From contig JANRJW010000008.1 in NCBI GenBank assembly GCA_033763775.1, positions 7,256-71,255 of the forward strand: a stretch of DNA of 64,000 bases, written 5' to 3'. The notes below the pieces were generated by a model that worked only from the letters and a program-made list of their open reading frames with translations, did no database searches and had not been told where the DNA came from. Both the position numbers and the translations under genes were made by a program. Source of the DNA: Alphaproteobacteria bacterium. Lineage in GTDB: Bacteria > Pseudomonadota > Alphaproteobacteria > Rickettsiales > SXRF01. Positions 5,663 to 55,850 of this stretch are shown here, piece by piece (position 1 is the stretch's first letter; the number at the start of each line of letters is the position of its first letter).

Positions 5663-6822
5663 GGCTGTGATTCGGGATTGGGGATTGGGGATTCGGGATT
5701 TGGGTTTGTTTGAGGTTGCTCAGTTGCTGTCATGCTAACCAGCTCCGGCACCACCGGCGCGCCGGGGAAAAAGACGCGCTGCGTGCCATTGATGACGATT
5801 TTTTCGCCAGCACTCAAACCATCGGTAATGATGCGCAGGCCTTCGGCCACGCCGCCCAGTGTCACCGCGCGCTGCTCGGTGGTGCCGTCTTCCTTCACCA
5901 CAATCACGAACTTGCGGCTCTGATCCGTGCCGATCGCTTTTTCAGCCACTAATATCGCAGGATGAGGCACTGCATCCGCAATGCGCACGCGGGCAAAAAG
6001 ACCCGGCAGTAGCGAGCCATCCTCATTGTCAAAAACAGTGCGCACACGAATGGTGCCGGATGCGATATTCAGCTGGTTATCAAATGATTGCACGCGGCCA
6101 GTGTAAGTTTTATCGCCGGTGGAAAGCGCCAGCTCCACCGGAATGGACGAGATGGTTTCCTGACTTCCCAGCGCTGGCTGCAAATAGCGCACGAAGGTCT
6201 GCTCATCGATTTCCACATCGGCATACATCGGATGGATGGAGACCACGCTGGTGAGCACAGGCGCATTGCCGCCAGCGTCAACCAGATTACCCACGGTGAG
6301 CTCCGGACGGCTTGCGCGGCCTTTGATTGGCGAGCGCACCTCGGTGTATTCCATATCCAGCTGGGCGCGGGTGAGCGCGGCGCGGGCGATTTCCAGCTCG
6401 TTCCTGCGCTGATCGAATTCGCGTTTGGGGATGGCCTTATCGGCTATCAGCGCACTGGCACGAGCGAACTCAGCTTCGGCGAGCGCGGCGGTTGCCTGCG
6501 CCGCTTTCAGGGTTGCAGCATAAGGGCGCGGGTCAATGGTGAAAAGTGGCTGGCCGGCCTCCACCATCTGCCCTTCGGTAAAATGCAATTTCTGAATCAC
6601 GCCAGAAACGCGCGGGCGAATCTCAGCGCTTTCCACCGCGCTTAAGCGGCCGGTAAACTCGCGCCACTGCCGCACCTCTTTGGCCACCACTTCGGCAACT
6701 TCCACCGGCATCGGCCCGCCCATGCCCGCCTGGCCGCCAGCACCGCGGCCTGAAACCATGGAATACACCCCATAACCGCCTGCAGCGACAAGGATAAGAA
6801 ACGCAAGATAACGACGCGGCAT
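5659..6822 (-). CDS. RND efflux periplasmic adaptor (membrane fusion protein)
   Basis: Single N-terminal TM helix, lipoyl/hairpin/beta-barrel MFP layout, translationally coupled to the RND gene. The C-terminal tail TNPNPESPIPNPESQP is encoded by heptamer repeats. Confidence 0.88.
   Translation of the reverse strand: MPRRYLAFLILVAAGGYGVYSMVSGRGAGGQAGMGGPMPVEVAEVVAKEVRQWREFTGRLSAVESAEIRPRVSGVIQKLHFTEGQMVEAGQPLFTIDPRPYAATLKAAQATAALAEAEFARASALIADKAIPKREFDQRRNELEIARAALTRAQLDMEYTEVRSPIKGRASRPELTVGNLVDAGGNAPVLTSVVSIHPMYADVEIDEQTFVRYLQPALGSQETISSIPVELALSTGDKTYTGRVQSFDNQLNIASGTIRVRTVFDNEDGSLLPGLFARVRIADAVPHPAILVAEKAIGTDQSRKFVIVVKEDGTTEQRAVTLGGVAEGLRIITDGLSAGEKIVINGTQRVFFPGAPVVPELVSMTATEQPQTNPNPESPIPNPESQP
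5669..5703. repeat. Tandem heptanucleotide array (GATTCGG GATTGGG GATTGGG GATTCGG GATTTGG)
   Basis: Five in-phase heptamers read directly from the sequence. They are followed at 5714-5730 by GTTGCT-type units. The array lies inside the 3-prime end of the MFP CDS. Confidence 0.85.
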
Positions 6823-6828
6823 AATGAC

Positions 6829-7161
6829 CTATTTTTTGGTTTTGGTTTTTTTGACTTTGTAGGGTTTGTGGTGCGCGAGGATGGATTCGAGCAGACCGGG
6901 AAATTTCTTATCAATGTCCTTTTTGCGAAGCGTGTTGTGCACCTCAATGCCTTTTTTTTCTGACCTCACCAGACCGGATTCCCTGAGTATCCGAAAATGA
7001 AAAGACAGAGTAGAGGGCGAAATTACATCGCAGCTCTGATTGCAACGCATGCCTTCACATTCCATCAGCCGCACCACGATTTCGCGGCGCAGTGGGTCAG
7101 AAAGCGCATGCACTACCGTATCCAGCGAGATTTGTTTTAAAGTGGGGTGATGAAAAGCCAT
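6829..7161 (-). CDS. ArsR/SmtB-family HTH transcriptional regulator
   Basis: LSDPLRREIVVRL...LSFHFRILRESGLV is the typical ArsR winged-helix core. It is the first gene of the efflux operon and is divergent from the lipid cluster. Confidence 0.8.
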   Translation of the reverse strand: MAFHHPTLKQISLDTVVHALSDPLRREIVVRLMECEGMRCNQSCDVISPSTLSFHFRILRESGLVRSEKKGIEVHNTLRKKDIDKKFPGLLESILAHHKPYKVKKTKTKK

Positions 7162-7168
7162 AGCGAGT

Positions 7169-7206: not shown

Positions 7207-7283
7207 ATAATCATGGACGCATGGGTTCTGGCTGCGACAATCGCCTTGACGAGTGGTCGCCTGAGCGCCTAATCTTTCGCGCG

Positions 7284-10954: not shown

Positions 10955-12219
10955 GCCAATTAGTCGCGCGCGCGCAGCTGCTGCGCTACGCGCTGCTGGG
11001 AGTGCCGCTTGGGTTTGTCGGGCTACCGCTTTATGTGCATTTGCCGAAATACTACGCGGATTTTCTGCCACTGTCGCTGGCGGCCATTGGCTTCGCGATG
11101 TTTATCACGCGGATTGTGGACTGCGTGGCCGATCCTTTCATCGGCGTGCTGTCGGATCGTCTGGCGGCGAAGCGCCGGCTACTCAGCGTCGCCGCGGCTT
11201 TGGTGATGGCGCTGGGCGTCATCGCGCTGTTCTTCCTGCCGAGCTACGCCACCAGCGAGAGCGCCATGGGGCTACTCATGCTGCTACTTTGCATCACCTA
11301 CCTTTCCTTCAGTCTTCTATCGGTGAATTTTTATGCGGGCGGGTTATCGCTTTCCACCGACCCACGCGAAACCACGCGCATCTCCGCCTGGCGCGAAGGC
11401 GCGATTATTCTGGGCGTGCTGGTGGCTTCTGCTTTGCCGCAAATACTCACAGAGGGACGCAGTAGCGAAGAAGCCTATCATCTCTTTGCGTGGATCGCGG
11501 CGGGGGTGATTATAGCCGCTTTGTTTACTCTTAAATCGCCATCATCCATTAAAACACCCCCACCCTACCCACCCCCGCAAGCAGGGGAGGTAAATTTTAG
11601 AACTGTCTGGGAAAATAAAACGCTGCGCTGGATTTTTGCGATTTTCTTTATCAACGCCATTCCGCCTTCCATCACTGCGACGCTGTTTTTATTTTTTGTC
11701 TCGGATGTGCTGGGCGCGCCGGACTCAAGCGGCGCGTTTCTTGGGCTTTATTTTTTAGCGGCGGTACTCGCCATGCCGCTATGGGTGAAGCTGGCCGCGC
11801 GCATCGGCAAGCGCCGCTCGCTGATTGGCTCGATGACGCTCGCCATCCTTTCCTTCATCTGGGCGTATGGGCTGGATAGCAGCAATAGCACCATGTTTTA
11901 TGCCATCTGCCTGCTTTCCGGCGCGGCGCTCGGCGGCGATCTGGCGGTGCTTCCCTCGCTGCTTTCAGACGCGCTGAAAGGCAAAGAACATCAAGGCGGG
12001 CTGGAGTTCGGCATCTGGAACTTCATCAGCAAATTCACCCTCGCCATGGCCGCCGGCATTGCGCTGCCGCTGCTTGCGGCGCTGGGCTATGAATCAGGCG
12101 CACGAAGCGAGGCAAGCCTTGGCGCACTCTCATTTGGCTACGCGCTGCTGCCCTGCCTCTTTAAACTCGGCGCGCTCGCACTACTTATACTAAGCCCCTT
12201 AGAGAGGAAAAACCCATGA
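10951..12219 (+). CDS. MFS (GPH-like) transporter
   Basis: About 12 hydrophobic segments. The D-rich motif after TM2 reads RIVDCVADPFIGVLSDR. Both ends have 4-nt overlaps with the neighbouring genes. Confidence 0.72.
   Translation: MSQLVARAQLLRYALLGVPLGFVGLPLYVHLPKYYADFLPLSLAAIGFAMFITRIVDCVADPFIGVLSDRLAAKRRLLSVAAALVMALGVIALFFLPSYATSESAMGLLMLLLCITYLSFSLLSVNFYAGGLSLSTDPRETTRISAWREGAIILGVLVASALPQILTEGRSSEEAYHLFAWIAAGVIIAALFTLKSPSSIKTPPPYPPPQAGEVNFRTVWENKTLRWIFAIFFINAIPPSITATLFLFFVSDVLGAPDSSGAFLGLYFLAAVLAMPLWVKLAARIGKRRSLIGSMTLAILSFIWAYGLDSSNSTMFYAICLLSGAALGGDLAVLPSLLSDALKGKEHQGGLEFGIWNFISKFTLAMAAGIALPLLAALGYESGARSEASLGALSFGYALLPCLFKLGALALLILSPLERKNP
11554..11592. repeat. Partial CTCCCCC/GGGAGG-family element inside the MFS central loop
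   Basis: ACACCCCCACCCTACCCACCCCCGCAAGCAGGGGAGG resembles the right arm of the elements at 20789-20905 and 27807-27913. It translates in frame as TPPPYPPPQAGE. Confidence 0.6.
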
Positions 12220-12746
12220 AAAAACTCTGCGCCCTTGCTGCCACCGCTGCCTTCATGCTTGGCGGCTGCAGCGCCACCACCACCGAAGATTATGCCAGCA
12301 AAACCCCCAAGCTCGATATCCGCCAATATCTCAATGGGCCGCTCGAAGCGCACGGTATTTTGTTTGATATCTCCGGCAAAGCTGACCTTGAATTTGTAGT
12401 CACGATGAAGGGCGCATGGAACGGCAATACCGGCACGCTGGATGAAGATTTTGTATTCAGCGACGGGCGCAAGGATAAGCGTGTCTGGACGGTGACATTC
12501 AAAGATGATCACAACTTCACCGCCACCGCGCATGATGTGATTGGCGAAGCTGTGGGCACGCAGCACGGCAATGCAGTGAATATGAAATACACGCTGCGAG
12601 TAAAGCGTTCAAATGGCGATATGATCGACCTTGCCATGGATGACTGGATGTATTTGCTGGATGACAAAACCCTGATCAACCGCACCAAGATGAAAAAATT
12701 TGGCTTCACGGTCGGTGAGCTGGTGATTACGTTCAGGAAACTCTAA
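12216..12746 (+). CDS. DUF3833 family lipoprotein (lipocalin-like)
   Basis: Lipobox MLGGCS, then the YLNGPLEAHGILFD...GTLDEDFVFSDG pattern seen in DUF3833 proteins of CFA-type clusters. Confidence 0.62.
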   Translation: MKKLCALAATAAFMLGGCSATTTEDYASKTPKLDIRQYLNGPLEAHGILFDISGKADLEFVVTMKGAWNGNTGTLDEDFVFSDGRKDKRVWTVTFKDDHNFTATAHDVIGEAVGTQHGNAVNMKYTLRVKRSNGDMIDLAMDDWMYLLDDKTLINRTKMKKFGFTVGELVITFRKL

Positions 12747-12747
12747 T

Positions 12748-12814
12748 ATCATCCCGAGCGAAGTCGAGGGATCTTGAAGATCCCTCCACGTGCTTCGCTT
12801 GGTCGGGATGACAT
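12748..12814. repeat. Short-form GTCATCC...GGGATGAC palindromic element
   Basis: TCATCCCGAGCGAAGTCGAGGGATCTTGAAGATCCCTCCACGTGCTTCGCTTGGTCGGGATGAC is a long imperfect hairpin that fills the gap between the DUF3833 and SDR genes. Confidence 0.85.
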
Positions 12815-12830
12815 CAATTAGTGAGGAACG

Positions 12831-16329: not shown

Positions 16330-16429
16330 TCTCCTTCTCCCCTCCGGGGAGAAGGCCGGGATGAGGGGGCAAAGCCTTACCGCTAATCACTACCCCCTCA
16401 CCCTCCCCTCTCCCCAGAGGGGAGAGGGT
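16330..16429. repeat. CTCCCC/GGGAGAGG-family composite element
   Basis: Hairpins CCTTCTCCCCTCCGGGGAGAAGG and CCCTCTCCCCAGAGGGGAGAGGG flank TGAGGGGG...CCCCCTCA. It lies upstream of the second MFP gene. Confidence 0.8.
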
Positions 16430-16480: not shown

Positions 16481-17611
16481 ATGGTTTCTAAGCGTTTGAT
16501 TCTTGGTCTGGTGGTGGTCGCTGGCAGCGCCTACGGCGCTTACAGCTATTTCCTTTCCGGCGGCGAGAGCAGCAAACAGCCGCCGCGCAGCGCGAGTGTC
16601 ACGGTTGCGGCCGCCAGCCGGCAGGATGTTCCCCTTCAGCTATCGCTGGTGGGCACGGCGGAAGCCTTTGAAACGGTCGCGGTCAAATCGCGGCTGGATT
16701 CCCAAATTACCGAGGTGGCGTTCAAGGATGGCGATTTGGTGAAGGAAGGCCAGTTGCTATTTACGCTGGATGACCGCGCGCTGGCCGCGCAGGCGCGCGA
16801 GCTGGAAGCAGAGCTTATGCAGGGCAAGGCGCAGCTGACCAACGCCCGCCTGCAATATGAACGGGCGCAGGAGCTTTTTAAAACCAACACCGTGGCACAG
16901 GCGCGGGTGGATGATACAAAGGCGGCGTTTGAAGCGCAGCAGGCGCAGGTAGCGGCAACTGCGGCCAGCCTCGAAAACGTTCGGGTCATGCTGGGCTATA
17001 GCCGCATCACCGCTCCCATCTCCGGACGCGCCGGCAGCATCCATGCCACACGCGGCAACAATGTGAAGGCCAACGATGTGGCGGCGCTGGTGGTCATTAA
17101 TCAGGTGCAGCCGCTGCGTGTGCAGGTGGCGATCCCGCAGCGCCACGTGGGCGAGGTGCGCCGCGCCATGGCCGCAGGTCAGGTTGCCGCCACCGCCACC
17201 CATGACGGCGCCGATACCCTGTCACACGGGGTACTCGATTATCTTGATAATGCCGTGGATGTCACGAGTGGCACGCTTGCTGCGCATGTACGCTTTGCCA
17301 ATGAAGACGAAGCGCTGTGGCCGGGCATGTTCCTGCGCCTCACCCTCACGCTTGGCACCGAGCAGGCAGCACTCACCATTCCTGCCGCAGCGATTCAGGG
17401 CGATGAAGGGGCGCGGTTTGTGTTTGTGGTGGATGAGGCTGGCAAAGCGAAGCGCACCAGTGTCACCGTTTCCAGAATCATGGCGGATGTCGCGGTGATT
17501 GAAAGCGGGCTGGAAGAAGGTGCCCGCGTCATCACCGATGGGCTGCTGCGGGTGAGTGATGGCAGTCAGGTGGAAATTAAGAATTCGTCATCCCGTGGAG
17601 CGGAGCAGTAG
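16481..17611 (+). CDS. RND efflux periplasmic adaptor (membrane fusion protein)
   Basis: Start taken at MVSKRLILGLVVVAGSAYG, because the ORF-track N-terminus reads through a repeat. Typical MFP hairpin and barrel regions are present. The last 8 codons and the stop lie in a repeat element. Confidence 0.85.
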   Translation: MVSKRLILGLVVVAGSAYGAYSYFLSGGESSKQPPRSASVTVAAASRQDVPLQLSLVGTAEAFETVAVKSRLDSQITEVAFKDGDLVKEGQLLFTLDDRALAAQARELEAELMQGKAQLTNARLQYERAQELFKTNTVAQARVDDTKAAFEAQQAQVAATAASLENVRVMLGYSRITAPISGRAGSIHATRGNNVKANDVAALVVINQVQPLRVQVAIPQRHVGEVRRAMAAGQVAATATHDGADTLSHGVLDYLDNAVDVTSGTLAAHVRFANEDEALWPGMFLRLTLTLGTEQAALTIPAAAIQGDEGARFVFVVDEAGKAKRTSVTVSRIMADVAVIESGLEEGARVITDGLLRVSDGSQVEIKNSSSRGAEQ

Positions 17612-17735
17612 CGCAGCGAGCACGGGATCCACGCTAAAAATGTCAGTAGACATTTTTAGACGCAAAAAGTCTTCTGACTTTTTGCTATACTGGATCCCGG
17701 ATAAATTTTGCTGCTGCAAAATTTTCCGGGATGAC
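17587..17735. repeat. Long-form GTCATCC...GGGATGAC multi-hairpin element (4 hairpins)
   Basis: GTCATCCCGTG...CACGGGATCC, then AAAAATGTCagtaGACATTTTT, then GCAAAAAGTCttctGACTTTTTGC, then GGATCCCGGATAAATTTTGCtgctGCAAAATTTTCCGGGATGAC. Near-identical modules recur at 46157-46302. Confidence 0.9.
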
Positions 17736-17746
17736 AAAAGGAAATT

Positions 17747-20700
17747 ATGAACCTCTCTGAGTTCTGTATCCGAAGGCCGGTTTTTACCACGCTGCTGATG
17801 CTGGCGGTGGTGGTGGCGGGCTGGGCGGGTTACCGCGCCCTGCCGGTATCGGCGCTGCCGAAAGTGGATTTCCCCACCATTCAGGTGACTGCGCGTCTGC
17901 CCGGCGCAAGCCCGGAGACGATGGCCTCATCGGTGGCCACGCCGCTGGAGCGGCAGTTTTCAACCATCGCCGGCATCAGCTCCATGACCTCCACCAGCTA
18001 CCTGGGGGTTTCGGAAATCACCCTGCAATTTGAGCTGGATCGCGATATTGACGGCGCGGCGCTCGATGTGCAGACGGCGATTGCGGCGACACTCAGCCGC
18101 CTGCCGCCGGAAATGCCAACCGCGCCTTCCTTTCGCAAAATCAACCCTGCCGACCAACCGATTTTATTCATCGCCGTCTCGTCGGATACGCTGCCCATTT
18201 CTAAAGTGAATGAATATGCCGATACGCTGATGGCGCAGCGCATCTCGATGGTCACCGGCGTGGCACAGGTGCAGATTTTTGGCGCGCAGAAATATGCGGT
18301 GCGCATTGAGGCGGATCCCAAGCGCCTCGCCGGTCATGACATCAGTTTTGATGAGGTGGAGCGCGCGGTGGCGGCCGCCAGCTCGAATGCGCCCACCGGC
18401 GTGATCAGCGGCGAAAAGCAGCTTTTTAACCTGAAAGTTGCCGGCCAGCCGATGGATGCGGCGACCTTCCGGCCACTGATTGTGACATGGAAAAACGGCG
18501 CGCCGGTTCGGCTTTCGGATATCGCGACGGTGACCGACTCGGTGGAAGATGACCGCTCGGTCGGGTTTATTGACGGCGAGCGTTCGGTGGTGCTTGCCAT
18601 TCAGCGCCAGCCGGATGCCAATACCATTCAGGTGGTGGATGATATCCGCGCCCTGCTGCCGCAGTTTCGCGCGCAGGTGCCGGCGAGCGTGGCACTCACG
18701 CCGATGCTCGATCGTTCGATCGCCGTGCGTGAATCGGTGCATGATGTGCAGCTGACACTGGCGCTCAGTGTCGTGCTGGTGGTGCTGGTGATCTATGCGT
18801 TTCTGCCGAGCCTGTCTGCCACTTTCATTCCGGCGATTGCCATTCCGCTATGCATCATGGCGACTTACGGCGCCATGGCGCTGCTTGGCTTTTCACTCAA
18901 TAACGTCTCGCTGCTGGCCATCACGCTATGCGTTGGCTTCATGGTCGATGACGCGATTGTGATGATGGAAAATATCATGCGCTATCTGGAGCGCGGCATG
19001 GCACCGTTTGAGGCGGCTATCAAGGGCGCGCGTGAAATCACCTTCACCATCATCTCGATCAGCCTGTCGCTGGTCGCAGTGTTTATTCCGGTTTTATTCA
19101 TGGGCGGGGTGATCGGGCGGCTGTTTAACGAGTTTGCAGTGACCATCACCGTTGCTACGCTGGTTTCCGCGCTGGTCTCGCTCACCTTAACCCCCATGCT
19201 CTGCAGCAGGTGGCTGAGGGCAGGCGCGCATCAGCCGGATAAGCAAAGCCGTTTTGAAAGGCTGTGGCAGCACAGTGTGCGCGGCTATGAGGCCAGTCTC
19301 GGCTGGGTACTGCGTCACCAGCGCGCCACGCTGCTTACTACGCTGGCCAGCATCGCGCTTACGGTGGGTGCGTTCATGATCGTGCCCAAAGGGTTTTTCC
19401 CGCTGGAAGATACCGGCTTTGTCTTTGTCTCCACCGAAGGCGCGCAGGATATTTCCTTTGAAGCGATGATGGAAAAACAGATCGCCGCCGCTGAGATTGT
19501 GCGCGCTGACCCGGCGGTGAAGAATGTATTTTATGCGGTGGGCGGCGGGCGCGGCGCGCTCAACACCGGCCGTATGTTTTTCAGCTTAAAGCCGAGGGGC
19601 GAGCGCGACCATGCCAGCGTGGTGATTGCCCGCCTGCGCGCTAAAACCGCCAGCGTGCCGGGCATTAATGTGTTCATGCAGCCGGTGCAGAACATCACCA
19701 TTGGCGGAAGATTAAGCCGCGCACTGTACCAATACACGCTGCAAAGCTCTGACCTTGAGGCGCTCTACGTCGCTGAGGCGAAATTGATGACGATGCTGCG
19801 TAAAGAAAGCGGCTTTCGCGACCTTAATTCCGACCTGCAGATGAAAAGCTTAGAAACGCACCTGCTCATTGATCAGGAAAAAGCGGCGAGCATGGGCATT
19901 ACCTATGAAGATATACGCCGCGCGCTGTATCAGGCGTTTGGCACGGCGCAGGTGGGCACGCTCTACACCCCCACCAACGATTACGCGGTGATACTGGAAG
20001 CAAAAAGCGATGCCTCGCCATCGCCGGGTGAGATTCTACAGATTCACCTGCGATCAACGAGCGGCACGCTGGTGCCGATGAGCAGCTTTGCCACCCTGAT
20101 GCAGCGCACTGGCGCACTTTCCATCAACCATCAGGGGCAGATGCCGTCAGTGACCATTTCTTTCAACCTTGCCGAAGGTTTTGCGCTGAGCCAGGCGGTC
20201 GATCGCATCCGCGCGTTGGAGCGCGAGGCGGGACTTTCCGAAGCCATCACCACTAATTTCCAGGGCGCGGCCAAGGCGTTTGAAGATTCCGAGAAAAATC
20301 AGGGCATGCTGATTATTCTCACCATCCTCGTGGTCTATATCATCCTCGGCATGCTCTATGAGAGCTTCATTCACCCGGTGACCATCCTCTCCGGCCTGCC
20401 ATCGGCGGGGCTTGGCGCGATTCTCGTGCTGCTGTTGTTTGGCATGGATCTCAACGTCATCGCGCTAATCGGCCTTCTGCTGCTGATTGGTATTGTGAAG
20501 AAAAACGCGATCATGATGATTGATTTTGCGGTGGCCGCGCGCGCTGAGGGAAGTAGCGCCGAGGAAGCGATTTATCAGGCCTGCCTGCAGCGCTTCCGGC
20601 CGATCATGATGACCACCTTCTGCGCGCTGTTTGGCACGCTGCCGATTGCGCTGGGCATTGGCGCCGGCGCCGAGCTGCGCCAGCCGCTGGGGGTGACGGT

Positions 20701-20788
20701 GGTTGGCGGGCTTATTACCTCGCAGGTGCTAACCCTTTATATTACCCCGGTCATTTACCTATTTTTTGAGCGGCTGCGTAAATCATAG
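17747..20788 (+). CDS. RND efflux permease (MdtB/MdtC/AcrB-like), 1013 aa
   Basis: MNLSEFCIRRPVFTTLLM and GFMVDDAIVMMEN are present, with 12-TM RND architecture. AAGGA Shine-Dalgarno sits directly after the repeat element. Confidence 0.92.
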   Translation: MNLSEFCIRRPVFTTLLMLAVVVAGWAGYRALPVSALPKVDFPTIQVTARLPGASPETMASSVATPLERQFSTIAGISSMTSTSYLGVSEITLQFELDRDIDGAALDVQTAIAATLSRLPPEMPTAPSFRKINPADQPILFIAVSSDTLPISKVNEYADTLMAQRISMVTGVAQVQIFGAQKYAVRIEADPKRLAGHDISFDEVERAVAAASSNAPTGVISGEKQLFNLKVAGQPMDAATFRPLIVTWKNGAPVRLSDIATVTDSVEDDRSVGFIDGERSVVLAIQRQPDANTIQVVDDIRALLPQFRAQVPASVALTPMLDRSIAVRESVHDVQLTLALSVVLVVLVIYAFLPSLSATFIPAIAIPLCIMATYGAMALLGFSLNNVSLLAITLCVGFMVDDAIVMMENIMRYLERGMAPFEAAIKGAREITFTIISISLSLVAVFIPVLFMGGVIGRLFNEFAVTITVATLVSALVSLTLTPMLCSRWLRAGAHQPDKQSRFERLWQHSVRGYEASLGWVLRHQRATLLTTLASIALTVGAFMIVPKGFFPLEDTGFVFVSTEGAQDISFEAMMEKQIAAAEIVRADPAVKNVFYAVGGGRGALNTGRMFFSLKPRGERDHASVVIARLRAKTASVPGINVFMQPVQNITIGGRLSRALYQYTLQSSDLEALYVAEAKLMTMLRKESGFRDLNSDLQMKSLETHLLIDQEKAASMGITYEDIRRALYQAFGTAQVGTLYTPTNDYAVILEAKSDASPSPGEILQIHLRSTSGTLVPMSSFATLMQRTGALSINHQGQMPSVTISFNLAEGFALSQAVDRIRALEREAGLSEAITTNFQGAAKAFEDSEKNQGMLIILTILVVYIILGMLYESFIHPVTILSGLPSAGLGAILVLLLFGMDLNVIALIGLLLLIGIVKKNAIMMIDFAVAARAEGSSAEEAIYQACLQRFRPIMMTTFCALFGTLPIALGIGAGAELRQPLGVTVVGGLITSQVLTLYITPVIYLFFERLRKS

Positions 20789-20905
20789 TTCTCCCCCCGC
20801 TTGCGGGGGAGTTAGAGGGGGGGTGATTCACCCCCACCACTCGCCTAAGAATGTTGTCAAAACAACATTCAAGGCTCATTGCCTCCCCCGCAAGCGGGAG
20901 AGGTT
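20789..20905. repeat. CTCCCCCCGC...GCGGGAGAGG-family composite element
   Basis: CTCCCCCCGCTTGCGGGGGAG hairpin, then TAGAGGGGGGTGATTCACCCCC, an AT-rich core with TGTTGTCAAAACAACA, then CCTCCCCCGCAAGCGGGAGAGG. Confidence 0.85.
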
Positions 20906-20947
20906 AAGACTTGAATTTCTAGGCTCAGCGCGCTATAGAAGCGCTCT

Positions 20948-21769
20948 ATGGCCACACCCCTGCTCAAACGTTTTTATCAGGATCGCTTCCTGCAGATGCG
21001 ATCCTTTGCACTCACCCTGCTGACTGTAGGCGCGCTGTCGGCGCTTCTGTTCAATATCATGCCCGCCTCTCACTATGTGTTTTCGCCGAGCAGCTGGCAT
21101 CTGCTACTCATTCCGCTGGCGATTTATCTAGGCGGGGTTTCGGCGGTGTGGATTCATAATGCGACCCATGGCAGCTTTTCGCCCAAATGGCTGAACTGGA
21201 TCTGCGGCCAGATTGCCGGCATTCACCAGCTCTGGGGCTTTACCGGCTGGAAGCTCATCCACCTGCTGCACCACATGTATTCCGATGATGAAAAGCTCGA
21301 CACCCATCCGCCCAAAGGCATGACCATCTGGCAGTTCGGCAAAATCATGTTTGTGTATTCGTCCAAACAGGTCTCTGCCCGCTACCGCGAACATTGGGGT
21401 GATACGAAAGAAACGAAACTCATTCAGCAAGTGGGTCTTGCGATATTCCTGATGATGTCGGCGGCGAACCTGATCTTCTGGTTTGCACTGCTCGGCGCGA
21501 ATGGTTTTGTGTTTTTCTTCCTGCCGTCTTTCATCACCAATCATCTGCTGTTTGTGGACATTAACTACAGCGCCCATCCGGCTGACCCCGCGACCGGCGA
21601 AACGAAGCCCGCCAACCTCAACCACACACCTTACTACAAACTTGCGAATTTTCTCTGGTCGGGGATTTATTTCCACGGCAACCACCACAGAAAACCCCTG
21701 CTCTTTAACCCGCGCATGATGCCCGAGCGCGCGCCCAGGCGGCCGGACGAACTTAAAGAAGCAGCTTAA
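20948..21769 (+). CDS. Membrane fatty-acid desaturase family protein
   Basis: Three histidine boxes (HNATHG, HLLHHMYSD, HGNHHRKP) and 4-5 hydrophobic segments. Confidence 0.75.
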   Translation: MATPLLKRFYQDRFLQMRSFALTLLTVGALSALLFNIMPASHYVFSPSSWHLLLIPLAIYLGGVSAVWIHNATHGSFSPKWLNWICGQIAGIHQLWGFTGWKLIHLLHHMYSDDEKLDTHPPKGMTIWQFGKIMFVYSSKQVSARYREHWGDTKETKLIQQVGLAIFLMMSAANLIFWFALLGANGFVFFFLPSFITNHLLFVDINYSAHPADPATGETKPANLNHTPYYKLANFLWSGIYFHGNHHRKPLLFNPRMMPERAPRRPDELKEAA

Positions 21770-22363: not shown

Positions 22364-22723
22364 TTACGCCGCAACCAGTCCGCCAAGCGGCTTGCCGGCG
22401 AGCAGATGCACGTGGAAATGATGAACCACCTGCCCTCCTTCTTTACCATGATTGCTGATTAAACGATAGCCGTTCTTATCAATGCCCAGCTGGCTGGCCA
22501 CTTTCTGCACCGCGTAAAAAAAGCCCTGCATTTTTTCCGGGGAGGCCTTGGCAGCAAAATCCTGAAAGGACTGATACTCGCCCTTAGGAATCACCAGCAC
22601 ATGCACCGGTGCTGCCGGAGCGATATCGTGAAACGCCAGTGCAAAACCATCTTCATAGACTTTATTGCAAGGAATTTCGCCGCGCAGAATTTTAGCGAAG
22701 ATATTGTTGCTGTCGTAGGTCAA
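22364..22723 (-). CDS. HIT (histidine triad) family protein
   Basis: Histidine triad HHFHVHLL and IFAKILRGEIP are present. The start is set at TTG 22723, preceded by GAGAGGGA. The ORF-track ATG at 22762 lies inside a repeat element and is the alternative. Confidence 0.82.
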   Translation of the reverse strand: MTYDSNNIFAKILRGEIPCNKVYEDGFALAFHDIAPAAPVHVLVIPKGEYQSFQDFAAKASPEKMQGFFYAVQKVASQLGIDKNGYRLISNHGKEGGQVVHHFHVHLLAGKPLGGLVAA

Positions 22724-22735
22724 TTTATCCCTCTC

Positions 22736-22850
22736 GTCATCCCGGCGTAGGCCGGGATCCATTTTTTTATTTCGACGCTAAAAGTCTACTGAATTTTAGC
22801 TTTACTGGATCCCGGATAAATTTTGCTACTGCTAAATTTTCCGGGATGAC
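22736..22850. repeat. Long-form GTCATCC...GGGATGAC multi-hairpin element
   Basis: GTCATCCCGGCGTAGGCCGGGATCC ... CTAAAAGTCtactGAATTTTAG ... GGATCCCGGATAAATTTTGCtactGCTAAATTTTCCGGGATGAC. Confidence 0.88.
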
Positions 22851-22855
22851 GGCGA

Positions 22856-26711: not shown

Positions 26712-26776
26712 GTCATTCCGACCGACCAACGGGAGCAGAGGAATCTTAAGATCCCTCGGCTTCGCTCGGGATGACA
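26712..26776. repeat. Short-form GTCATYCC...GGGATGAC palindromic element (degenerate left arm)
   Basis: GTCATTCCGACCGACCAACGGGAGCAGAGGAATCTTAAGATCCCTCGGCTTCGCTCGGGATGAC. Confidence 0.8.
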
Positions 26777-27785: not shown

Positions 27786-27806
27786 TGGTTGTCTTTCAAG
27801 TGATAT

Positions 27807-27913
27807 TCCTCCCCCGCTTGCGGGGGAGGCTAGGTGGGGGTGATATGGCTCACTTAATCTCATTCCAAATGAGGTCACCCCCCTCTAACTCCCCCCGCAA
27901 GCGGGGGGAGAGC
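27807..27913. repeat. CCTCCCCCGC...GCGGGGGGAGAG-family composite element
   Basis: CCTCCCCCGCTTGCGGGGGAGG, then TAGGTGGGGGTGA...TCACCCCCCTCTAA, then CTCCCCCCGCAAGCGGGGGGAG. Same architecture as 20789-20905. Confidence 0.85.
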
Positions 27914-33160: not shown

Positions 33161-33164
33161 CAAC

Positions 33165-36995: not shown

Positions 36996-37484
36996 TCAGA
37001 ATACATCATCTTCGATGCGGCAAAGATAACTGAAAGCGCGCTGAAGTGGGTTTGCACTGCTTGCCATCGCCACACGAAGACGCTCTTCGTCCCTGAAGGC
37101 TTCCGCCTCTTCGCGTGCGGCTTTCAGCGCCGCTTTGAGGTCAATGGTCAGCATGTGTTTATCGTAGATGGCCTGCCAGATTTTCTGTTCCACTTCAGAA
37201 AAATCGCCATCAATATGAAAAAGAACGCGGGCAAAATTAATCAGATGAGCGCGATCTCGCTTATCAGTAATTTCGCCAAAAATATTTTCAATCGCTATGC
37301 CCTGATGCAGATCTTTATCGAGCTGCGCCTGCTGCGCGTCAGAAAAATCAAACTGCTGCCAATATTCATGGATTAAATCCATTTCAGAATTCGACAGGCG
37401 ATGATCACTATAGGCAAGCGCAATCGCGCCGCGCCACATGGCGAATTTACTTTCGGTAACCGGCACTCGTCGAACAACTTTCAT
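36996..37484 (-). CDS. Hypothetical protein, possibly TerB-like
   Basis: 162-aa helical acidic protein. The repeated pattern D...S..E...I resembles TerB-type domains. It converges on terC with zero spacing. The assignment is weak. Confidence 0.35.
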   Translation of the reverse strand: MKVVRRVPVTESKFAMWRGAIALAYSDHRLSNSEMDLIHEYWQQFDFSDAQQAQLDKDLHQGIAIENIFGEITDKRDRAHLINFARVLFHIDGDFSEVEQKIWQAIYDKHMLTIDLKAALKAAREEAEAFRDEERLRVAMASSANPLQRAFSYLCRIEDDVF

Positions 37485-37554: not shown

Positions 37555-37609
37555 GTCATCCTGAGCGAAGCGAAGGATCTTCAGATTCCTCGCTTACACT
37601 AGGAATGAC
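37555..37609. repeat. Short-form GTCATCC...GGAATGAC palindromic element
   Basis: GTCATCCTGAGCGAAGCGAAGGATCTTCAGATTCCTCGCTTACACTAGGAATGAC. It ends 6 nt before the holin start codon. Confidence 0.82.
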
Positions 37610-38031: not shown

Positions 38032-38108
38032 AACCCTCACCCACGCGCTTTGCGCGTTTCCCTCTCCCTGAAAGGGAGAGGGTCAGGGTGAGGGTCGCTT
38101 TGCGACCC
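38032..38108. repeat. CCCTCACCC/CCCTCTCCC-family element
   Basis: CCCTCACCC...CCCTCTCCCTGAAAGGGAGAGGGTCAGGGTGAGGGTCGCTTTGCGACCC. Its reverse complement closely matches 39297-39345. Confidence 0.85.
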
Positions 38109-38117
38109 AATCGATGT

Positions 38118-38191
38118 GCGGGTGTAGTTCAATGGTAGAACGGCAGCTTCCCAAGCTGCATACGAGGGTTCGATTCCCTTCACCCGCTCCA
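38118..38191 (+). tRNA. tRNA-Gly (anticodon CCC), CCA encoded
   Basis: GCGGGTGTAGTTCAATGGTAGAACGGCAGCTTCCCAAGCTGCATACGAGGGTTCGATTCCCTTCACCCGCTCCA. The acceptor GCGGGTG pairs with CACCCGC, the anticodon loop is TTCCCAA, and the T arm is GGTTCGATTCC. Confidence 0.92.
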
Positions 38192-38349
38192 CTTAGATTT
38201 TCTTAGCAGCTTTGCTGCTTAGAAAATCAAGTGTCCGACGTAGCTCTTTAGAGCGAAGGCGGACTGGTTGAACAATCTCGGCCTTAATTGAAATTTAACG
38301 CAGAATCTAGTATAGCGTAGTTATTCTATCATCATTGTTTGGAGATATT

Positions 38350-38844
38350 ATGCGTTTTCGCACTGCCCTGCTCACCAGCCTTGCCGCCCTCAGCCTGTCC
38401 GCCCCCGCCTCGGCATCGGATTACCTGACCGGCTATGTCGGCTGGTTTGATGTGGTGGATGAAGAAAATGAAGCCACGCAGTTTGGCCTCGAATATCGCC
38501 TAAGCCCCGTTGGCTACGGCCTGCGGCCGACCATTGGTATTGACGTAACTACAGACGGCGCAGTCTATGCGTTTGGCGGGATTAACTGGGAAGTGCCGCT
38601 GATTGATAACCAGCTGTTTCTGATTCCAAACTTCATGGCCGGCGGCTATTCGCAGGGCGATGGCAAGGATCTCGGCCATGGGCTTGAGTTCCGCTCTGGT
38701 ATCGAGCTTTCCTACCAGATGGAAAATAGTCACCGCGTGGGCGTGGCATTTAACCATATCTCCAATGCCAGCCTTGGTGACAAAAACCCCGGCGCGGAGA
38801 CGGTGCTGATTAATTATTCCGTACCGGTGGGCACGTTGTTCTAG
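38350..38844 (+). CDS. Acyloxyacyl hydrolase / PagL-like lipid A deacylase outer-membrane protein
   Basis: Signal peptide ending ASA, a beta-strand-rich sequence, and the catalytic-region motif FNHISNASLG..NPGAE. GGAGA Shine-Dalgarno precedes the ATG at 38350. Confidence 0.62.
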   Translation: MRFRTALLTSLAALSLSAPASASDYLTGYVGWFDVVDEENEATQFGLEYRLSPVGYGLRPTIGIDVTTDGAVYAFGGINWEVPLIDNQLFLIPNFMAGGYSQGDGKDLGHGLEFRSGIELSYQMENSHRVGVAFNHISNASLGDKNPGAETVLINYSVPVGTLF

Positions 38845-38862
38845 GTTTTACCGACGCGTTTC

Positions 38863-38975
38863 GTCATTCCCGCGAAAGCGGGAATCCATTCAAAGCCGCT
38901 TTCTGGCGGCGATAAAGTATTTTTTCTCCTCGCTACCACGGTAAGTATCTGGATCCCCGCTTTCGCGGGGATGAC
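38863..38975. repeat. Composite element: GTCATTCCCGCGAAAGCGGGAATC ... GGATCCCCGCTTTCGCGGGGATGAC
   Basis: Two terminal mini-hairpins in inverted orientation flank a 64-bp spacer. Confidence 0.85.
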
Positions 38976-39267
38976 GATGACGTAACAAAATAGGGCGCGC
39001 CTCCTCCTACGCTAAAGCTTCGGAGGACCGGCTTCGCAGTGTTTGGCGGACGTTGTTTGCATGGCTGCATTCAACTAGCGGCTGCAGGCGGGGTTGGTGC
39101 CGCGAGCAGCGCTGCTGACCCGGATGATCTGCCACACCCAAACCAGACTTTGCTTCGGCCGAAGCAAGGGTGATGATGGTGGGCAAATAGATGTTCGGGA
39201 AGGGGGAAAGTTTACGAAAAATACAATAAGCCGCCATCGCCTGAATTCGCTTTTGCAAATTCTGAAA

Positions 39268-39396
39268 CATTTTCGATTTAATCATGCACAGAGTTTGGGT
39301 CGCTAAACGACCCTCACCCTAACCCTCTCCCTAGTAGGGAGAGGGACACAGCGGCTACAGTGCTGCGGTAGAGGGTGCATGATTAAATCGAAAATG
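39268..39396. mobile_element. MITE-like 129-bp element with perfect 22-bp terminal inverted repeats enclosing a CCCTCTCCC-family repeat
   Basis: CATTTTCGATTTAATCATGCAC (39268-39289) is the exact reverse complement of 39375-39396. The interior carries GGGTCGCTAAACGACCCTCACCCTAACCCTCTCCCTAGTAGGGAGAGGG. Confidence 0.6.
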
Positions 39397-41293: not shown

Positions 41294-41317
41294 GTCATTC
41301 CTGCGAAGGCAGGAATC
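41294..41317. repeat. Solo GTCATTCC-TGCGAAGGCA-GGAATC mini-hairpin (half element)
   Basis: Same terminal module as 38863-38886 and 54789-54812. Confidence 0.7.
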
Positions 41318-44895: not shown

Positions 44896-44964
44896 CTTGA
44901 GCGAGCACAGCGAGTCGAAAGATCTTTTAAAAGCATCAGATCCCTCGGCTACGCTCGGGATGAC
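44891..44964. repeat. Short-form GTCATC...GGGATGAC palindromic element
   Basis: GTCATCTTGAGCGAGCACAGCGAGTCGAAAGATCTTTTAAAAGCATCAGATCCCTCGGCTACGCTCGGGATGAC. Confidence 0.82.
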
Positions 44965-46142: not shown

Positions 46143-46156
46143 GTCATCTGTTTTAC

Positions 46157-46302
46157 GTCATCCTGAGGATTTTGTCAGCAGACAAAATCCGTGAGGATCC
46201 ATTTTAAAATGTCAGCAGACATTTTAAACGCAAAAAGTCTGCTGACTTTTTGCTATGCTGGATCCCGGAAAATTTTGCTGCTGCAAAATTTTCCGGGATG
46301 AC
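46157..46302. repeat. Long-form GTCATCC...GGGATGAC multi-hairpin element (4 hairpins)
   Basis: GTCATCCTGAGGATTTTGTCagcaGACAAAATCCGTGAGGATCC, TTAAAATGTCagcaGACATTTTAA, GCAAAAAGTCtgctGACTTTTTGC, GGATCCCGGAAAATTTTGCtgctGCAAAATTTTCCGGGATGAC. Confidence 0.9.
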
Positions 46303-46305
46303 GGC

Positions 46306-46549: not shown

Positions 46550-46619
46550 GTTGCTAGTTGCTAGTTGCTAGTTGTTAGTGGTCAACTATAAACCAGCAAC
46601 CAGCAACTCTCAACCAGCA
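46550..46619. repeat. Ten in-phase heptamers forming an inverted array (GTTGCTA x3, GTTGTTA, GTGGTCA, ACTATAA, ACCAGCA x2, ACTCTCA, ACCAGCA)
   Basis: Read directly. The left arm is nearly the reverse complement of the right arm, with A/G differences that become G-U wobbles only on the minus-strand transcript. Confidence 0.85.
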
Positions 46620-46627
46620 ACTTATTT

Positions 46628-47506
46628 ATGTTTCTCGTCGCCGCTTTTTATCATTTTTTTGATTTTCCGGATTTTCGTGCCCATCAGCAGCCGCTGCTTT
46701 CACTGCTGAAATCGCAGGGCATCAAAGGCTCGATATTAATTGCGGATGAAGGCTTCAACGGCACGATCTCCGGCACCCAGCCGGCCGTGCACGCGGTGCT
46801 CGAGCGCCTCAAACACATCGGCGGTGCGTTTGAGCATAAGGAAAGTTTTTTTGAGAAGCAGCCTTTTGGCAAAGCGAAAGTAAGGCTTAAAAAGGAGCTG
46901 ATTTCGCTTGGTGAAGCCGCTTTCGTTCGTCATCCCCGCTTCGTGCGGGGATCTAAGGCCGCAGAGCTTGATGGCTCAGGATCCCCGCTCAAGGCGGGGG
47001 TGACAGTGGGTGATTATGTTGAACCGAAAGACTGGAACGCGCTGATTAGCGACCCCGATACCATCGTGCTTGATACACGCAATAGTTACGAGACGTATCT
47101 TGGAACATTCGCGCGCGCGATAGACCCAAACACCAGAAACTTCAAAGAGCTACCGGCATTTGTTCGCGAAACACTGCAGGACAAGAAAGATAAAAAAATT
47201 GCCACCTTCTGCACCGGCGGCATTCGCTGCGAAAAATTCACCGCGTGGATGAAAGCCGAAGGTTTTGAAAACGTGTATCACTTAAAAGGCGGCATCCTGA
47301 AATATCTGGAAGAAATTCCAAGAGAAGAAAGTTTGTGGAACGGCGAGTGCTACGTCTTTGATGAGCGCGTGGCGGTCGGCCATGGGCTTGCGCCATCGCA
47401 GACCGCGAGCTCCTGCACCGCCTGCGGCCATACGCTCAAAGAACAAGATCATCGTTCTCCCTTATATAAGGAGAATGAATCATGTCCACATTGCATTGCG
47501 CGCTGA
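46628..47506 (+). CDS. trhO: Rhodanese-domain protein of the YceA/TrhO (UPF0176) family, carrying a ~25-codon repeat insertion
   Basis: AAFYHFFDF, ADEGFNGTISG, DTRNSYE, the rhodanese loop FCTGGIRCEK and C-terminal CxxC motifs. Confidence 0.8.
   Translation: MFLVAAFYHFFDFPDFRAHQQPLLSLLKSQGIKGSILIADEGFNGTISGTQPAVHAVLERLKHIGGAFEHKESFFEKQPFGKAKVRLKKELISLGEAAFVRHPRFVRGSKAAELDGSGSPLKAGVTVGDYVEPKDWNALISDPDTIVLDTRNSYETYLGTFARAIDPNTRNFKELPAFVRETLQDKKDKKIATFCTGGIRCEKFTAWMKAEGFENVYHLKGGILKYLEEIPREESLWNGECYVFDERVAVGHGLAPSQTASSCTACGHTLKEQDHRSPLYKENESCPHCIAR
46929..47004. repeat. GTCATCCCCGC...GCGGGGGTGAC element inside trhO
   Basis: GTCATCCCCGCTTCGTGCGGGGATC ... GGATCCCCGCTCAAGGCGGGGGTGAC has the same two-mini-hairpin layout as 38863-38975. 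It translates as RHPRFVRGSKAAELDGSGSPLKAGV. Confidence 0.82.
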
Positions 47507-53069: not shown

Positions 53070-53078
53070 GCATCTTAT

Positions 53079-54746: not shown

Positions 54747-54788
54747 GAGGGTGTTCTAGTTTGGTGTTCGCCTCACCCTACCTTTTTT

Positions 54789-54872
54789 GTCATTCCCGCG
54801 AAAGCGGGAATCCAGCCATAGTTACTCTGGATCCCGGATCGCGCTCGCGGCTGCGCGCTTGTCCGGGATGAC
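54789..54872. repeat. Composite element GTCATTCCCGCGAAAGCGGGAATC ... GGATCCCGGATCGCGCTCGCGGCTGCGCGCTTGTCCGGGATGAC
   Basis: Read directly. Its right arm (54822-54872) encodes the last ~16 codons and the stop of xerD. Confidence 0.85.
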
Positions 54873-55850
54873 GCGGCGAGAAAGCGGATGTTTTTCTTCG
54901 ACCAGCTGTTTCAGGTGAAGGCCAGCGACATGCGTGTAGATCTGGGTGGTAGCGATGTCGCTATGACCAAGCAGCTCCTGAATCACTCGCAGGTCGGCGC
55001 CGCCTTCCAGCAGGTGGGTCGCGAAGCTGTGGCGCAGCGCGTGCGGTGATATTTTTTCGGGATTAATCCCTGCCTTGATCGCCAGCTCTTTCAGCATGAC
55101 GCCAAACTGCTGGCGTGTGATATGACCACTCGCGCGGTGGTAGGGAAACAGGTAGGTGGATGACGGATGGCGGTTGACGGATGGCGACGAGGCGGATTTT
55201 TTTCTTTTTTCCTTCTCATTCGTCATCCGGGCTCCGTTATCCTGAAGAAACATATCCCTGACTTTCAAATAGGAAGCCAGTGCCAGCCTTGCTTTAGCGC
55301 CCAGCGGCACAAGACGTTCCTTGCTGCCTTTGCCACGAACCAGCATGAAATCCTGCTTATGCACCGCAGATAGCGGCAGCGACACCAGTTCAGACACACG
55401 CAGCCCCGCCCCGTAGACCAGCTCAAGCATGGCAGAAAGCCTGAGTCCTTTCGGACTATCGTCGAGCGCCGCGCACTCCAGCAGCAGGTGAATGTCATCA
55501 GCGGTGAGCACCTGCGGCAATGTTTTGGCAAGGCGCGGTGCTGCCACCGTGGCGGCAGGGTTATCTCGGCGCAGCTTTTCACTGTAAAGAAACTGAAAAA
55601 ACTGCTTGATGGCAGACAGCCTGCGCGCCTGAGTCTGCGGCGAAAGACCTCGTGCGCTGAGGGTGGCAAGATACGCCTCAATCGCCTGCGAGCGAAGATG
55701 GCTGAGACGCAGTTTATGCTGCTTGCCATAAGCAAGAAAATCTTCAAGATCACGCCGGTAAGCCGCCACGGTATGGCCGGAGGCGGCGCGTTCAGCGGCC
55801 ATCATCTCCAGAAAGGCGTCGAGCTGATTACTGGCTGACAGCCCTGACAT
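54822..55850 (-). CDS. xerD: Tyrosine site-specific recombinase XerD
   Basis: SPHALRHSFATHLLEGGADLRVIQELLGHSDIATTQIYTHV is the catalytic R-H-R-Y region. The gene neighbours aroK-aroB. It has an extra ~20-aa segment (aa ~204-231) and a C-terminal extension. Confidence 0.85.
   Translation of the reverse strand: MSGLSASNQLDAFLEMMAAERAASGHTVAAYRRDLEDFLAYGKQHKLRLSHLRSQAIEAYLATLSARGLSPQTQARRLSAIKQFFQFLYSEKLRRDNPAATVAAPRLAKTLPQVLTADDIHLLLECAALDDSPKGLRLSAMLELVYGAGLRVSELVSLPLSAVHKQDFMLVRGKGSKERLVPLGAKARLALASYLKVRDMFLQDNGARMTNEKEKRKKSASSPSVNRHPSSTYLFPYHRASGHITRQQFGVMLKELAIKAGINPEKISPHALRHSFATHLLEGGADLRVIQELLGHSDIATTQIYTHVAGLHLKQLVEEKHPLSRRVIPDKRAAASAIRDPE

Follow-up and report, generated by a model that had tools for sequence, protein, structure and literature searches.

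The elements considered here are short repeats that are read in frame within protein-coding genes of a 64-kb stretch of DNA, hereafter the window, which comes from contig JANRJW010000008.1 (positions 7,256 to 71,255) of a metagenome-assembled genome (MAG). The closest records are labelled 'MAG: Rickettsiales bacterium' or 'MAG: Alphaproteobacteria bacterium'. The window has a GC content of about 55%, is about 92% coding, and harbours prfC, hisH, trhO, pepA, xerD, hisB, a GPH/MFS transporter gene, two RND adaptor genes (MFP1 and MFP2) and an RND permease gene. NCBIfam confirmed all gene identities given in a preliminary description of this DNA, and the host open reading frames (ORFs) are intact, each passing the curated threshold of one NCBIfam model or more. 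That description had proposed that repeat families lie in frame, in loops or at C-termini, within intact and selected genes, a proposal borne out by filled and empty sites among relatives, by the ratio of nonsynonymous to synonymous substitution rates (dN/dS) and by loop location.

The window was compared with syntenic relatives and with hundreds of orthologues. Identity to the window in syntenic DNA is 93–96% for the genome L005, 94–96% for L087, and 78–85% for L001 and L170; L173 was compared at the protein level (trhO 91%, xerD about 97%), and L006 to L015 are family-level genomes. Fold z-scores given below refer to the DNA fold of each element, more negative values meaning stronger folds; a generic hairpin scan of the window was too noisy to serve as a census. 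Four internal sites (prfC, pepA, trhO and hisH) and two 3' ends (xerD and MFP2) are well supported:

34929 to 34999, minus strand: in-frame miniature element of family A (BoxC/TM type) in prfC, encoding PFSPRLRGEPEGVDHPPFPPAGGG
32247 to 32288, plus strand: in-frame 42-bp GC-rich hairpin in pepA, adding 14 residues shortly upstream of GKGVTFDTGG
46929 to 47004, plus strand: in-frame miniature element of family B (NTS/SRM type) in trhO, with inverted hairpins GTCATCCCCGC...GCGGGGGTGAC
26291 to 26362, minus strand: hypervariable in-frame segment of hisH just before PHMGWN, a heptamer array of the form GGCATTA/GGCATCA ... CCAATCC/CTAATGC
54822 to 54872, minus strand: C-terminal tail and stop codon of xerD from a family B hairpin, the window's protein ending ...RRVIPDKRAAASAIRDPE*
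17587 to 17629, plus strand: family B hairpin (pattern match) over the 3' end of MFP2

In-frame elements within prfC, pepA and trhO

The prfC insert is made of two inverted triplex-type motifs (34931-34963 and 34968-34998) lying 4 bp apart, and its DNA folds at -34.2 kcal/mol (z -6.3). In a three-way DNA alignment, positions 34921-34994 are present in the window and L005 and missing from L001; at the protein level, the segment is shared with a 98% identical twin (P0001) and absent in 14 other orthologues of 73–93% identity. The insert corresponds to a gap of 18–19 residues relative to solved RF3 structures, and it is found in independent ENA/NCBI assemblies. Orthologues of prfC carry inserts at two further sites, which makes three sites in all. 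Repeat-like inserts with SAAADASARQT-type and HLTSPLWGE-type peptides were noticed elsewhere in the orthologues P0008, P0039, P0092 and P0099.

In pepA, the extra segment amounts to exactly 42 bp and occurs in the window alone, the site being empty in L005 (95% nucleotide identity) and in L001. It appears as a 15-residue gap relative to PepA of P. putida (3H8E), shortly before GKG(V/I)TFDTGG, and the hairpin folds with a z of -3.9. No second copy or donor of this hairpin was found in about 250 kb comprising the window and related loci.

In trhO, the element occupies the linker that joins the N-terminal domain to the rhodanese domain, in a region of low predicted local distance difference test (pLDDT) in the predicted structure. 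It adds a net 24 residues relative to six family orthologues and to the 84%-identical P0123/L170. The 76-bp element folds at -23.9 kcal/mol (z -5.0), is present in L173, L171 and L172, and is absent in L170/P0123 and many orthologues; it occurs in four independent samples and persists in lineages that are 69–73% identical. Across orthologues, the same linker holds at least six different inserts, of BoxC/TM and SRM types, with peptides such as ...WIPAYAGMT and ...SPLKGG..., close relatives being either empty or differently filled.

The orthologue alignments place the indels at the element boundaries in prfC, pepA, trhO and the xerD tail, as had been anticipated. Equally, at least three kinds of element behave alike, namely, the BoxC/TM type, the NTS/SRM type and heptamer arrays, to which the singleton pepA hairpin is added. 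The claim that each insert sits in a variable loop stands for RF3 and PepA, with their clean gaps, for the low-pLDDT linker of trhO and for HisH. No consistent target-site duplication was seen at the prfC, pepA or trhO sites; the native sequence beside the prfC and pepA inserts resembles an element end.

Similar inserts were observed in other genes of relatives. The nrdJ gene of L014 has a 27-residue insert, VGHPVGGAATAQDLSRSSKDPAQPKGS, which is lacking in nrdJ of the window, and one MFS homologue has the peptide ILPAKAGMIQ in its central loop, where the family A-like unit of the window's transporter gene also lies. As inserts recur in trhO, prfC, nrdJ and MFS orthologues, the phenomenon is clade-wide and dynamic. 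A candidate insertion in nrdJ of the window was rejected, there being none, and a weak TACO1 match is not an insert either.

The hypervariable loop of HisH

The hisH segment, between WLKGEV and LKIPHMGWN, is extra and in frame relative to minimal HisH loops, as first proposed, but its reading as a simple palindromic insertion did not hold, with a weak fold (z -0.9) and a hypervariable site. Across four relatives, three different sequences occupy identical boundaries: heptamer arrays in the window and L001, (CAACCAG)n in L087, and a complete 119-bp family A element in L005. More distant HisH proteins have other heptamer-like peptides, as judged by eye, or nothing. In the AlphaFold model of HisH (pLDDT 86.7), residues 116-133, which are the insert, form the sole low-confidence stretch, and the HisH protein of the window is identical in a Logan assembly. 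Judged by the aligned sequences, the site is hypervariable rather than the seat of a simple insertion.

Heptamers of this kind are also found between genes:

46553 to 46625: palindrome of heptamer arrays, (GTTGCTA)n...(CCAGCAA)n, in the spacer upstream of trhO

The heptamer of this palindrome also fills the hisH loop of L087 (L087:1629-2258). More generally, tandem heptamer arrays occur both between genes and in coding loops or tails, some of them as two inverted arms.

C-terminal tails and weaker examples

At the 3' ends of xerD and MFP2, family B hairpins supply tails and stop codons, in agreement with the preliminary description. The xerD gene of L173, about 97% identical, ends HPLARKPI*, and the tail is also absent in six other orthologues; it matches the family B pattern and folds with a z of -3.3. 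In MFP2, the hairpin (z -3.4) provides the last eight or so codons and the TAG stop at 17609-17611, and the L087 gene has a different tail after ...QVEI.

Three of the nine examples first listed are weak:

55158 to 55241, minus strand: variable xerD loop, GGATGAC-type heptamers round an A-rich centre (z -1.7)
11558 to 11595, minus strand: degenerate single family A unit in the central loop of the GPH/MFS transporter gene, 82% complementary over 38 nt to 27803-27840 (z -1.0)
5659 to 5735, minus strand: C-terminal tail of MFP1 made of CCCAATC/CCGAATC heptamers, one-armed and not palindromic (z -0.1)

The MFS loop, described as an insertion at 11554-11592, does resemble family A but has a length typical of 12 homologues (38–54% identity), so that insertion is unproven there. 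The xerD loop had been listed as a probable palindromic insert, which its weak fold and its partial sharing with L007 do not support; it is longer than in four of six orthologues, L007 has a similar peptide, L173 is identical, and the loop is possibly an old insertion. The MFP1 tail was likewise mistaken for a palindromic element, and this heptamer array matches the hisH segment at 89–92% over 24–27 nt. Two further candidates were set aside: an N-terminal insertion in MFP2, the inverted pair at 16333-16428 lying upstream of the probable true start (ATG 16482), and N-terminal 'extensions' of the HIT and hisB genes, which are start-codon artefacts of the ORF list.

Selection on the host genes and the question of frame

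Compared with relatives, dN/dS is 0.04–0.07 for prfC and pepA, 0.10–0.27 for trhO, 0.20 for xerD and 0.16–0.36 for hisH, the hisH value being inflated because non-homologous inserts were aligned. An overall range of 0.04–0.35 places the host genes under purifying selection. A 'translation-ready design' of the elements was considered and rejected, since their stop-free frames are not enriched compared with random window segments, and the trhO and hisH elements are open in one frame out of six. In a window that is mostly coding, 3 of the 18 family B hairpins touch coding sequence. Given that elements are not stop-poor and that so few of these hairpins are in coding sequence, the in-frame state is attributed to survivorship under selection. 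The insertion sites turn over, with gain, loss and replacement among genomes about 95% identical.

Assignment of the two families to named repeat classes

Repeats of the BoxC/PIT/triplex class have been known since the 1990s in many bacteria, among them E. coli, cyanobacteria and Neisseria. Family A is of this class: a C-rich arm, a loop, a complementary G-rich arm and a short spacer are followed by a mirror G-run. A search for the corresponding pattern, a C-run hairpin with a G-run, gave nine matches in the window, which overlap and fall at four places (none expected), and a stricter triplex-motif scan returned nine motifs, mostly as inverted pairs. Two copies (38060 and 39311) fit exactly the TM_ECO consensus CCCTCNCCC N3-6 GGGNGAGGG N3 GGGNGAGGG; the dominant core in this lineage is CTCCCCCCGC, not CCCTCNCCC. 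Within genes, such motifs are found as the pair in prfC (34931-34998) and as pairs in hisH and holC of L005. Holder et al. (2015; PMC4666352) described the TM_ECO motifs of E. coli as 'always intergenic' and reported no mobility function in their vicinity; the loci were hypervariable between strains.

The intergenic copies of family A are as follows:

27797 to 27921: family A element upstream of hisB, an inverted triplex-type pair with a 31-bp spacer
20789 to 20907: family A element directly after the stop codon of the RND permease gene
16333 to 16428: inverted triplex-type pair upstream of the probable MFP2 start, ATG 16482
38056 to 39349: two inverted TM_ECO-type motifs (38060-38094 and 39311-39345) in 64-nt arms that are 84% complementary

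The last pair brackets a 1.2-kb block with tRNA-Gly(CCC), pagL, a family B element (38859-38977) and a 92-residue ORF without a Pfam match; the block may be a composite unit.

Family B has the outline CGTCATYCC...GGRATCC, and the pattern GTCATYCC-N(6-36)-GGRATC is found 18 times in the window against 0.03 expected. Two copies, at 54788-54815 and 38862-38889, each match 27 of the 28 positions of the oriented Neisseria NTS consensus, CGTCATTCCCGCGMAVGCGGGAATCYRG, and the degenerate published SRM pattern has four matches in the window versus 0.28 expected. Family B is thus a member of the NTS/SRM repeat class associated with the GIY-YIG single-strand nuclease Ssn, and both families are already-named repeat classes, not orphans, which the preliminary description had not recognised. 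An Rfam search of the window at gathering thresholds returned two tRNAs and nothing for the repeat families. SsnA, the Neisseria enzyme acting on NTS, modulates transformation by cleaving at these repeats, and NTS-ssnA-NTS units have been likened to insertion sequences (Nat Commun 2025, PMC11893778). According to the same study, SRMs are abundant in Rickettsia and Wolbachia, so that a kinship of family B with the palindromic elements of Rickettsia is possible, and NTS seldom lie within genes (2% in N. meningitidis).

Family B copies occur singly or as inverted pairs and are clustered in spacers:

54785 to 54821: intergenic hairpin containing the copy at 54788-54815
38862-38889, 12746-12815, 26712-26775 and 33047-33161: further pattern matches
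37560-37609, 41294-41317 and 44905-44964: further pattern matches
22723 to 22852: 130-bp hairpin cluster between the HIT and nitroreductase genes, in the window only
46150 to 46303: intergenic composite element, with further copies at 17634-17735 and at 22770-22850

The HIT and nitroreductase genes abut in L087, where the 130-bp cluster is absent. In L001, a mazE/pemK toxin–antitoxin cassette (20155-21295) lies between two inverted family B hairpins, its counterpart in the window being the 154-bp composite at 46150-46303. BrnT/BrnA cassettes are present in neighbouring spacers of other relatives (L005 3980-4508 and L173 1003-1591). L087 (reverse complement, about 532-1830) has an ORF of 372 residues with no Pfam match in the spacer separating the RND adaptor gene from the permease gene, and the counterpart in the window (17578-17746) holds just 135 bp of family B repeats. 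A parent element was not found for family B, and long-range inverted pairs in relatives enclose just the mazEF cassette or ordinary genes.

A DUF559 element with family A ends

In L005, the holC gene (DNA polymerase III chi) carries a 489-bp in-frame insert (L005:8575-9076) composed, in order, of a triplex-type motif, an ORF of about 105 residues encoding a DUF559 protein, and an inverted triplex-type motif. The empty site in the window lies at about 33395-33425, and the native loop codons found there (EENAANQAPA) are replaced, not merely interrupted, in L005. The left and right ends of this element are 94% and 91% identical, respectively, to the two halves of the prfC insert, which is therefore the DUF559 element minus its gene; moreover, window positions 27873-27911, within the element upstream of hisB, are 100% identical over 39 nt to its right end. 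Family A miniature elements thus share their ends with a DUF559 unit that is present or absent as a block.

Scanning metagenomes with the DUF559 ORF revealed 80 diverse loci at 48–61% identity. Among the 61 loci with adequate flanks, 37 have the ORF bracketed by inverted repeats of at least 24 nt in the same architecture (0 of 256 shifted controls), and the bracketed elements are mostly 400–500 bp long. In those loci, 102 of 130 triplex-type motifs lie at most 200 bp from the DUF559 ORF; the two ends match within a locus, and cores differ between loci. An hrpA-like helicase gene was observed to hold, in frame, a complete element with matched inverted ends (L104:2934-3370); it separates the parts encoding the DEAD and Helicase_C domains, and the frame is stop-free for 3.6 kb.

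The DUF559 ORF is related to PDB 3HRL from Neisseria gonorrhoeae and to E. coli YcjD, and weakly to Vsr. In E. coli K-12 (NC_000913.3, about 1351200-1351760; L174:4206-4240 and 4408-4761), a canonical BoxC/TM_ECO motif lies 167 bp downstream of ycjD, and this locus also holds a duplicated fragment of the ycjD 3' end. Of 5426 complete E. coli genomes, 3378 (62%) have the gene, always as one copy. An empty site could not be delimited in E. coli, the strains lacking ycjD being rearranged between sapF and fabI with no clean borders. A limited literature search found no link of DUF559 or YcjD to BoxC/TM repeats or to mobility.

A further proposal, to which we give even odds, is that BoxC/PIT/triplex repeats are the terminal inverted repeats of a widespread and unrecognised selfish element whose sole gene codes for a DUF559 nuclease (Vsr-like, PD-(D/E)XK). 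This element would be the counterpart of Ssn–NTS and RAYT–REP, would lie in frame in essential genes either whole (holC, hrpA-like) or without its gene (prfC, hisH), and its turnover would make the loops hypervariable.

Proposed explanation and alternatives

The explanation that we favour, with a probability of roughly 80%, is that several families of structured short repeats colonise this genome, and that the survivors found in frame in loops, linkers and 3' ends give an outcome like that of the Rickettsia palindromic elements (RPEs), with family A representing the ends of the DUF559 element. Two of the repeat families would belong to classes that accompany small nuclease genes (Ssn and DUF559). 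The inverted pairs of family A would be the two ends of an element of about 0.45–0.5 kb with DUF559 as its only gene, loss of which would leave a miniature element of 70–125 bp. Copies would be gained and lost fast, and most would stay between genes. Those landing in genes would be purged by selection unless they have a net length divisible by three, are read in a stop-free frame, and sit in a surface loop, a linker between domains or a 3' end. Translation of the surviving copies would then yield additional peptides, probably disordered, or new C-terminal tails ending at new stops. The insert peptides are presumably expressed. The DUF559 and Ssn-type nucleases may drive the spread of the repeats, and copying could proceed via breaks, for instance, by a break-induced route, or via single-stranded hairpins.

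Several observations weigh against this explanation. No GIY-YIG (Ssn, cd10448) gene was found among the scanned ORFs of the window, which covers 64 kb of the genome; the window has no DUF559 gene, and about 250 kb of close relatives hold one copy; the single-copy state of ycjD indicates that the element is not proliferating in E. coli; and neither a parent element nor any longer gene-carrying partner was identified for the heptamer arrays or the pepA hairpin, family B also lacking such a partner. The insertions are not clean, since in prfC, trhO and holC the insert takes the place of a few native loop codons, so that simple cut-and-paste is not demonstrated, and no consistent target-site duplication was found at 18 borders of DUF559 elements. 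Replacement of native codons fits repair-mediated copying better than cut-and-paste, although it is not proof. The pepA allele is known from a single assembly, no second one having been found. Finally, the filling of the same loop by different families in close relatives, in hisH and trhO, is not readily explained by random insertion followed by selection.

A less likely alternative, compatible with the favoured explanation, is that insertion is targeted: the elements or their nucleases would prefer certain sequences or existing elements, so that new copies would arrive repeatedly in the same loops and displace older ones. The three unrelated sequences that share identical hisH boundaries in genomes about 95% identical, and the six or more BoxC/TM and SRM inserts of the trhO loop, are in keeping with such homing, as are the likeness of native sequence to an element end beside the prfC and pepA inserts, the clusters of different families in spacers, and the hypervariability of triplex-motif loci between E. 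coli strains (PMC4666352). However, the inserts of prfC orthologues lie at three different sites, no common target motif was seen at the sites examined, and recurrence could also reflect a small number of permissive loops or the exchange of alleles by recombination between strains.

It appears unlikely that the intragenic copies are kept because they benefit the host at the DNA or RNA level, either as nuclease targets modulating recombination or transformation, as has been proposed for NTS and SsnA, or as structures acting in transcription or translation. One argument for such a benefit comes from the right hairpin of the trhO element (46982-47004), which reads CCCCGC...GCGGGG in the window versus CCCCGG...CCGGGG in L171 and L172, a paired change that preserves the stem and alters two residues (L>D and A>P). 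The persistence of this insert in lineages 69–73% identical and the effect of SsnA cutting at NTS on Neisseria transformation (PMC11893778) point the same way. Nevertheless, this is one compensatory pair in four sequences, and upkeep of the hairpin could come from intrastrand palindrome repair or from independent insertion of other family members; furthermore, close relatives lack the insert at these sites and show no sign of harm, and the copies in pepA and the xerD tail were acquired very recently.

Ordinary lineage-specific loop variation or low-complexity slippage, without any mobile element, is improbable as a general account. In its favour, the MFS loop is no longer than in homologues, L007 has a similar xerD loop peptide, and the heptamer arrays that make up the MFP1 tail, xerD loop and hisH segment fold weakly or not at all as palindromes, tandem heptamers being able to grow by slippage. 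In contrast, nucleotide matches tie the segments in prfC, trhO and the tails of xerD and MFP2 to intergenic families with many copies, pepA acquired a whole 42-bp hairpin in a single step, as judged against a 95% relative, and the L005 hisH loop holds a complete 119-bp family A element; slippage is already refuted for prfC, trhO, the xerD tail and L005 hisH. As for mis-assembly of metagenomic reads across repeats, or decaying pseudogenes, the MAG source and the single assembly behind the pepA insert invite the suspicion, but it is hardly credible in view of the prfC insert in independent ENA/NCBI assemblies, the trhO insert in four independent samples, the identical HisH of the Logan assembly, and intact ORFs that score above NCBIfam cut-offs with low dN/dS.

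Comparison with known systems

RPEs are palindromic repeats found between genes and in frame in many housekeeping genes, several families behaving alike (PMC10969869). Families A and B resemble them in being multi-copy, both intergenic and intragenic in frame, and in encoding loop peptides compatible with the fold. The host differs, being an uncultured lineage with about 55% GC and keeping histidine biosynthesis, Lpt and RND efflux, unlike a reduced obligate intracellular Rickettsia; the elements are 42–125 bp long versus about 100–150 bp for RPEs, and the sites turn over among 95%-identical genomes.

With NTS, dRS3 and SRM repeats, family B shares the oriented flanks and core (CGTCATTCCCGCGAAAGCGGGAATCCAG, 27/28 to Neisseria NTS). 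In contrast to NTS, which seldom are intragenic, copies lie here in frame in trhO and at the 3' ends of xerD and MFP2, and most copies in the window have longer stems or loops, just four fitting the published SRM pattern. Family A has in common with BoxC/TM_ECO the three-block layout with its mirror G-run and the hypervariable loci, but here a pair is translated in prfC (and in L005 hisH), and pairs form the ends of an element carrying a DUF559 gene.

[quoted passage not shown] The present elements are likewise short and non-coding with inverted ends, for example, in prfC (71 bp), in trhO (76 bp), at 27797-27921 (125 bp) and at 38859-38977 (119 bp), and, for family A only, the ends are shared with a gene-carrying element at 91–100% identity. 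Unlike a MITE parent, the putative parent here encodes a DUF559 nuclease of about 105 residues and no known transposase, and no target-site duplication was seen. Repetitive extragenic palindromic (REP) sequences are extragenic by definition, and their partner RAYT is an IS200/IS605-like transposase of the HUH/Y1 type. Common to the REP/REPIN–RAYT system and the elements described here are hairpin repeats, often in inverted pairs, that flank a single small gene, with an action, here putative, on hairpin DNA, and greatly outnumber it (see PMC11893778 for a discussion); the fold here is PD-(D/E)XK or GIY-YIG, not HUH/Y1. Long inverted repeats read in frame in coding genes are also described for the mitochondria of Nematomorpha (PMC6649704). 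These are eukaryotic organelles, and the palindromes are not known to be tied to interspersed repeat families or nuclease genes.

Other features of the window

A tRNA-Phe(GAA) gene at 435-510 is followed, 170 bp on, by a 45-nt partial copy of itself (640-684) that is 96% identical; partial tRNA copies are often left by integration at a tRNA gene. TerC- and TerB-family genes (36048-37484) stand between prfC and a gene resembling a gene transfer agent (GTA) holin, and are absent there in L001 and L005. A 31-bp hairpin at 39001-39031, CTCCTCCTACGCTAAAGCTTCGGAGGACCGG, is found in the window only, being missing from L001 and L005; this hairpin, the length of which is not divisible by three, borders the 92-residue ORF.

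Implications

To our knowledge, in-frame palindromic colonisation of housekeeping genes has mainly been viewed as a curiosity of Rickettsia. In the present case, coding loops of a different lineage have been colonised in an RPE-like manner by named repeat classes that were thought to avoid genes, having been described as rarely (NTS/SRM) or never (BoxC/TM) intragenic. A density comparable to that of Rickettsia, in a different, non-reduced alphaproteobacterial lineage, suggests that proteins may generally acquire loops and tails from selfish repeats in this way. Unrelated elements alternating at one loop in genomes about 95% identical also constitute a natural experiment on the tolerance of enzymes to insertion.

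The connection between DUF559 and the BoxC/TM repeats is the most novel part of the finding. If true, it would supply the 30-year-old BoxC/PIT/TM repeats with their missing partner gene and give DUF559, a very common domain of unknown function, a testable role, for which E. coli ycjD and its adjacent BoxC motif offer a ready system. By analogy with Ssn, DUF559 might yield a new structure- or sequence-specific nuclease.

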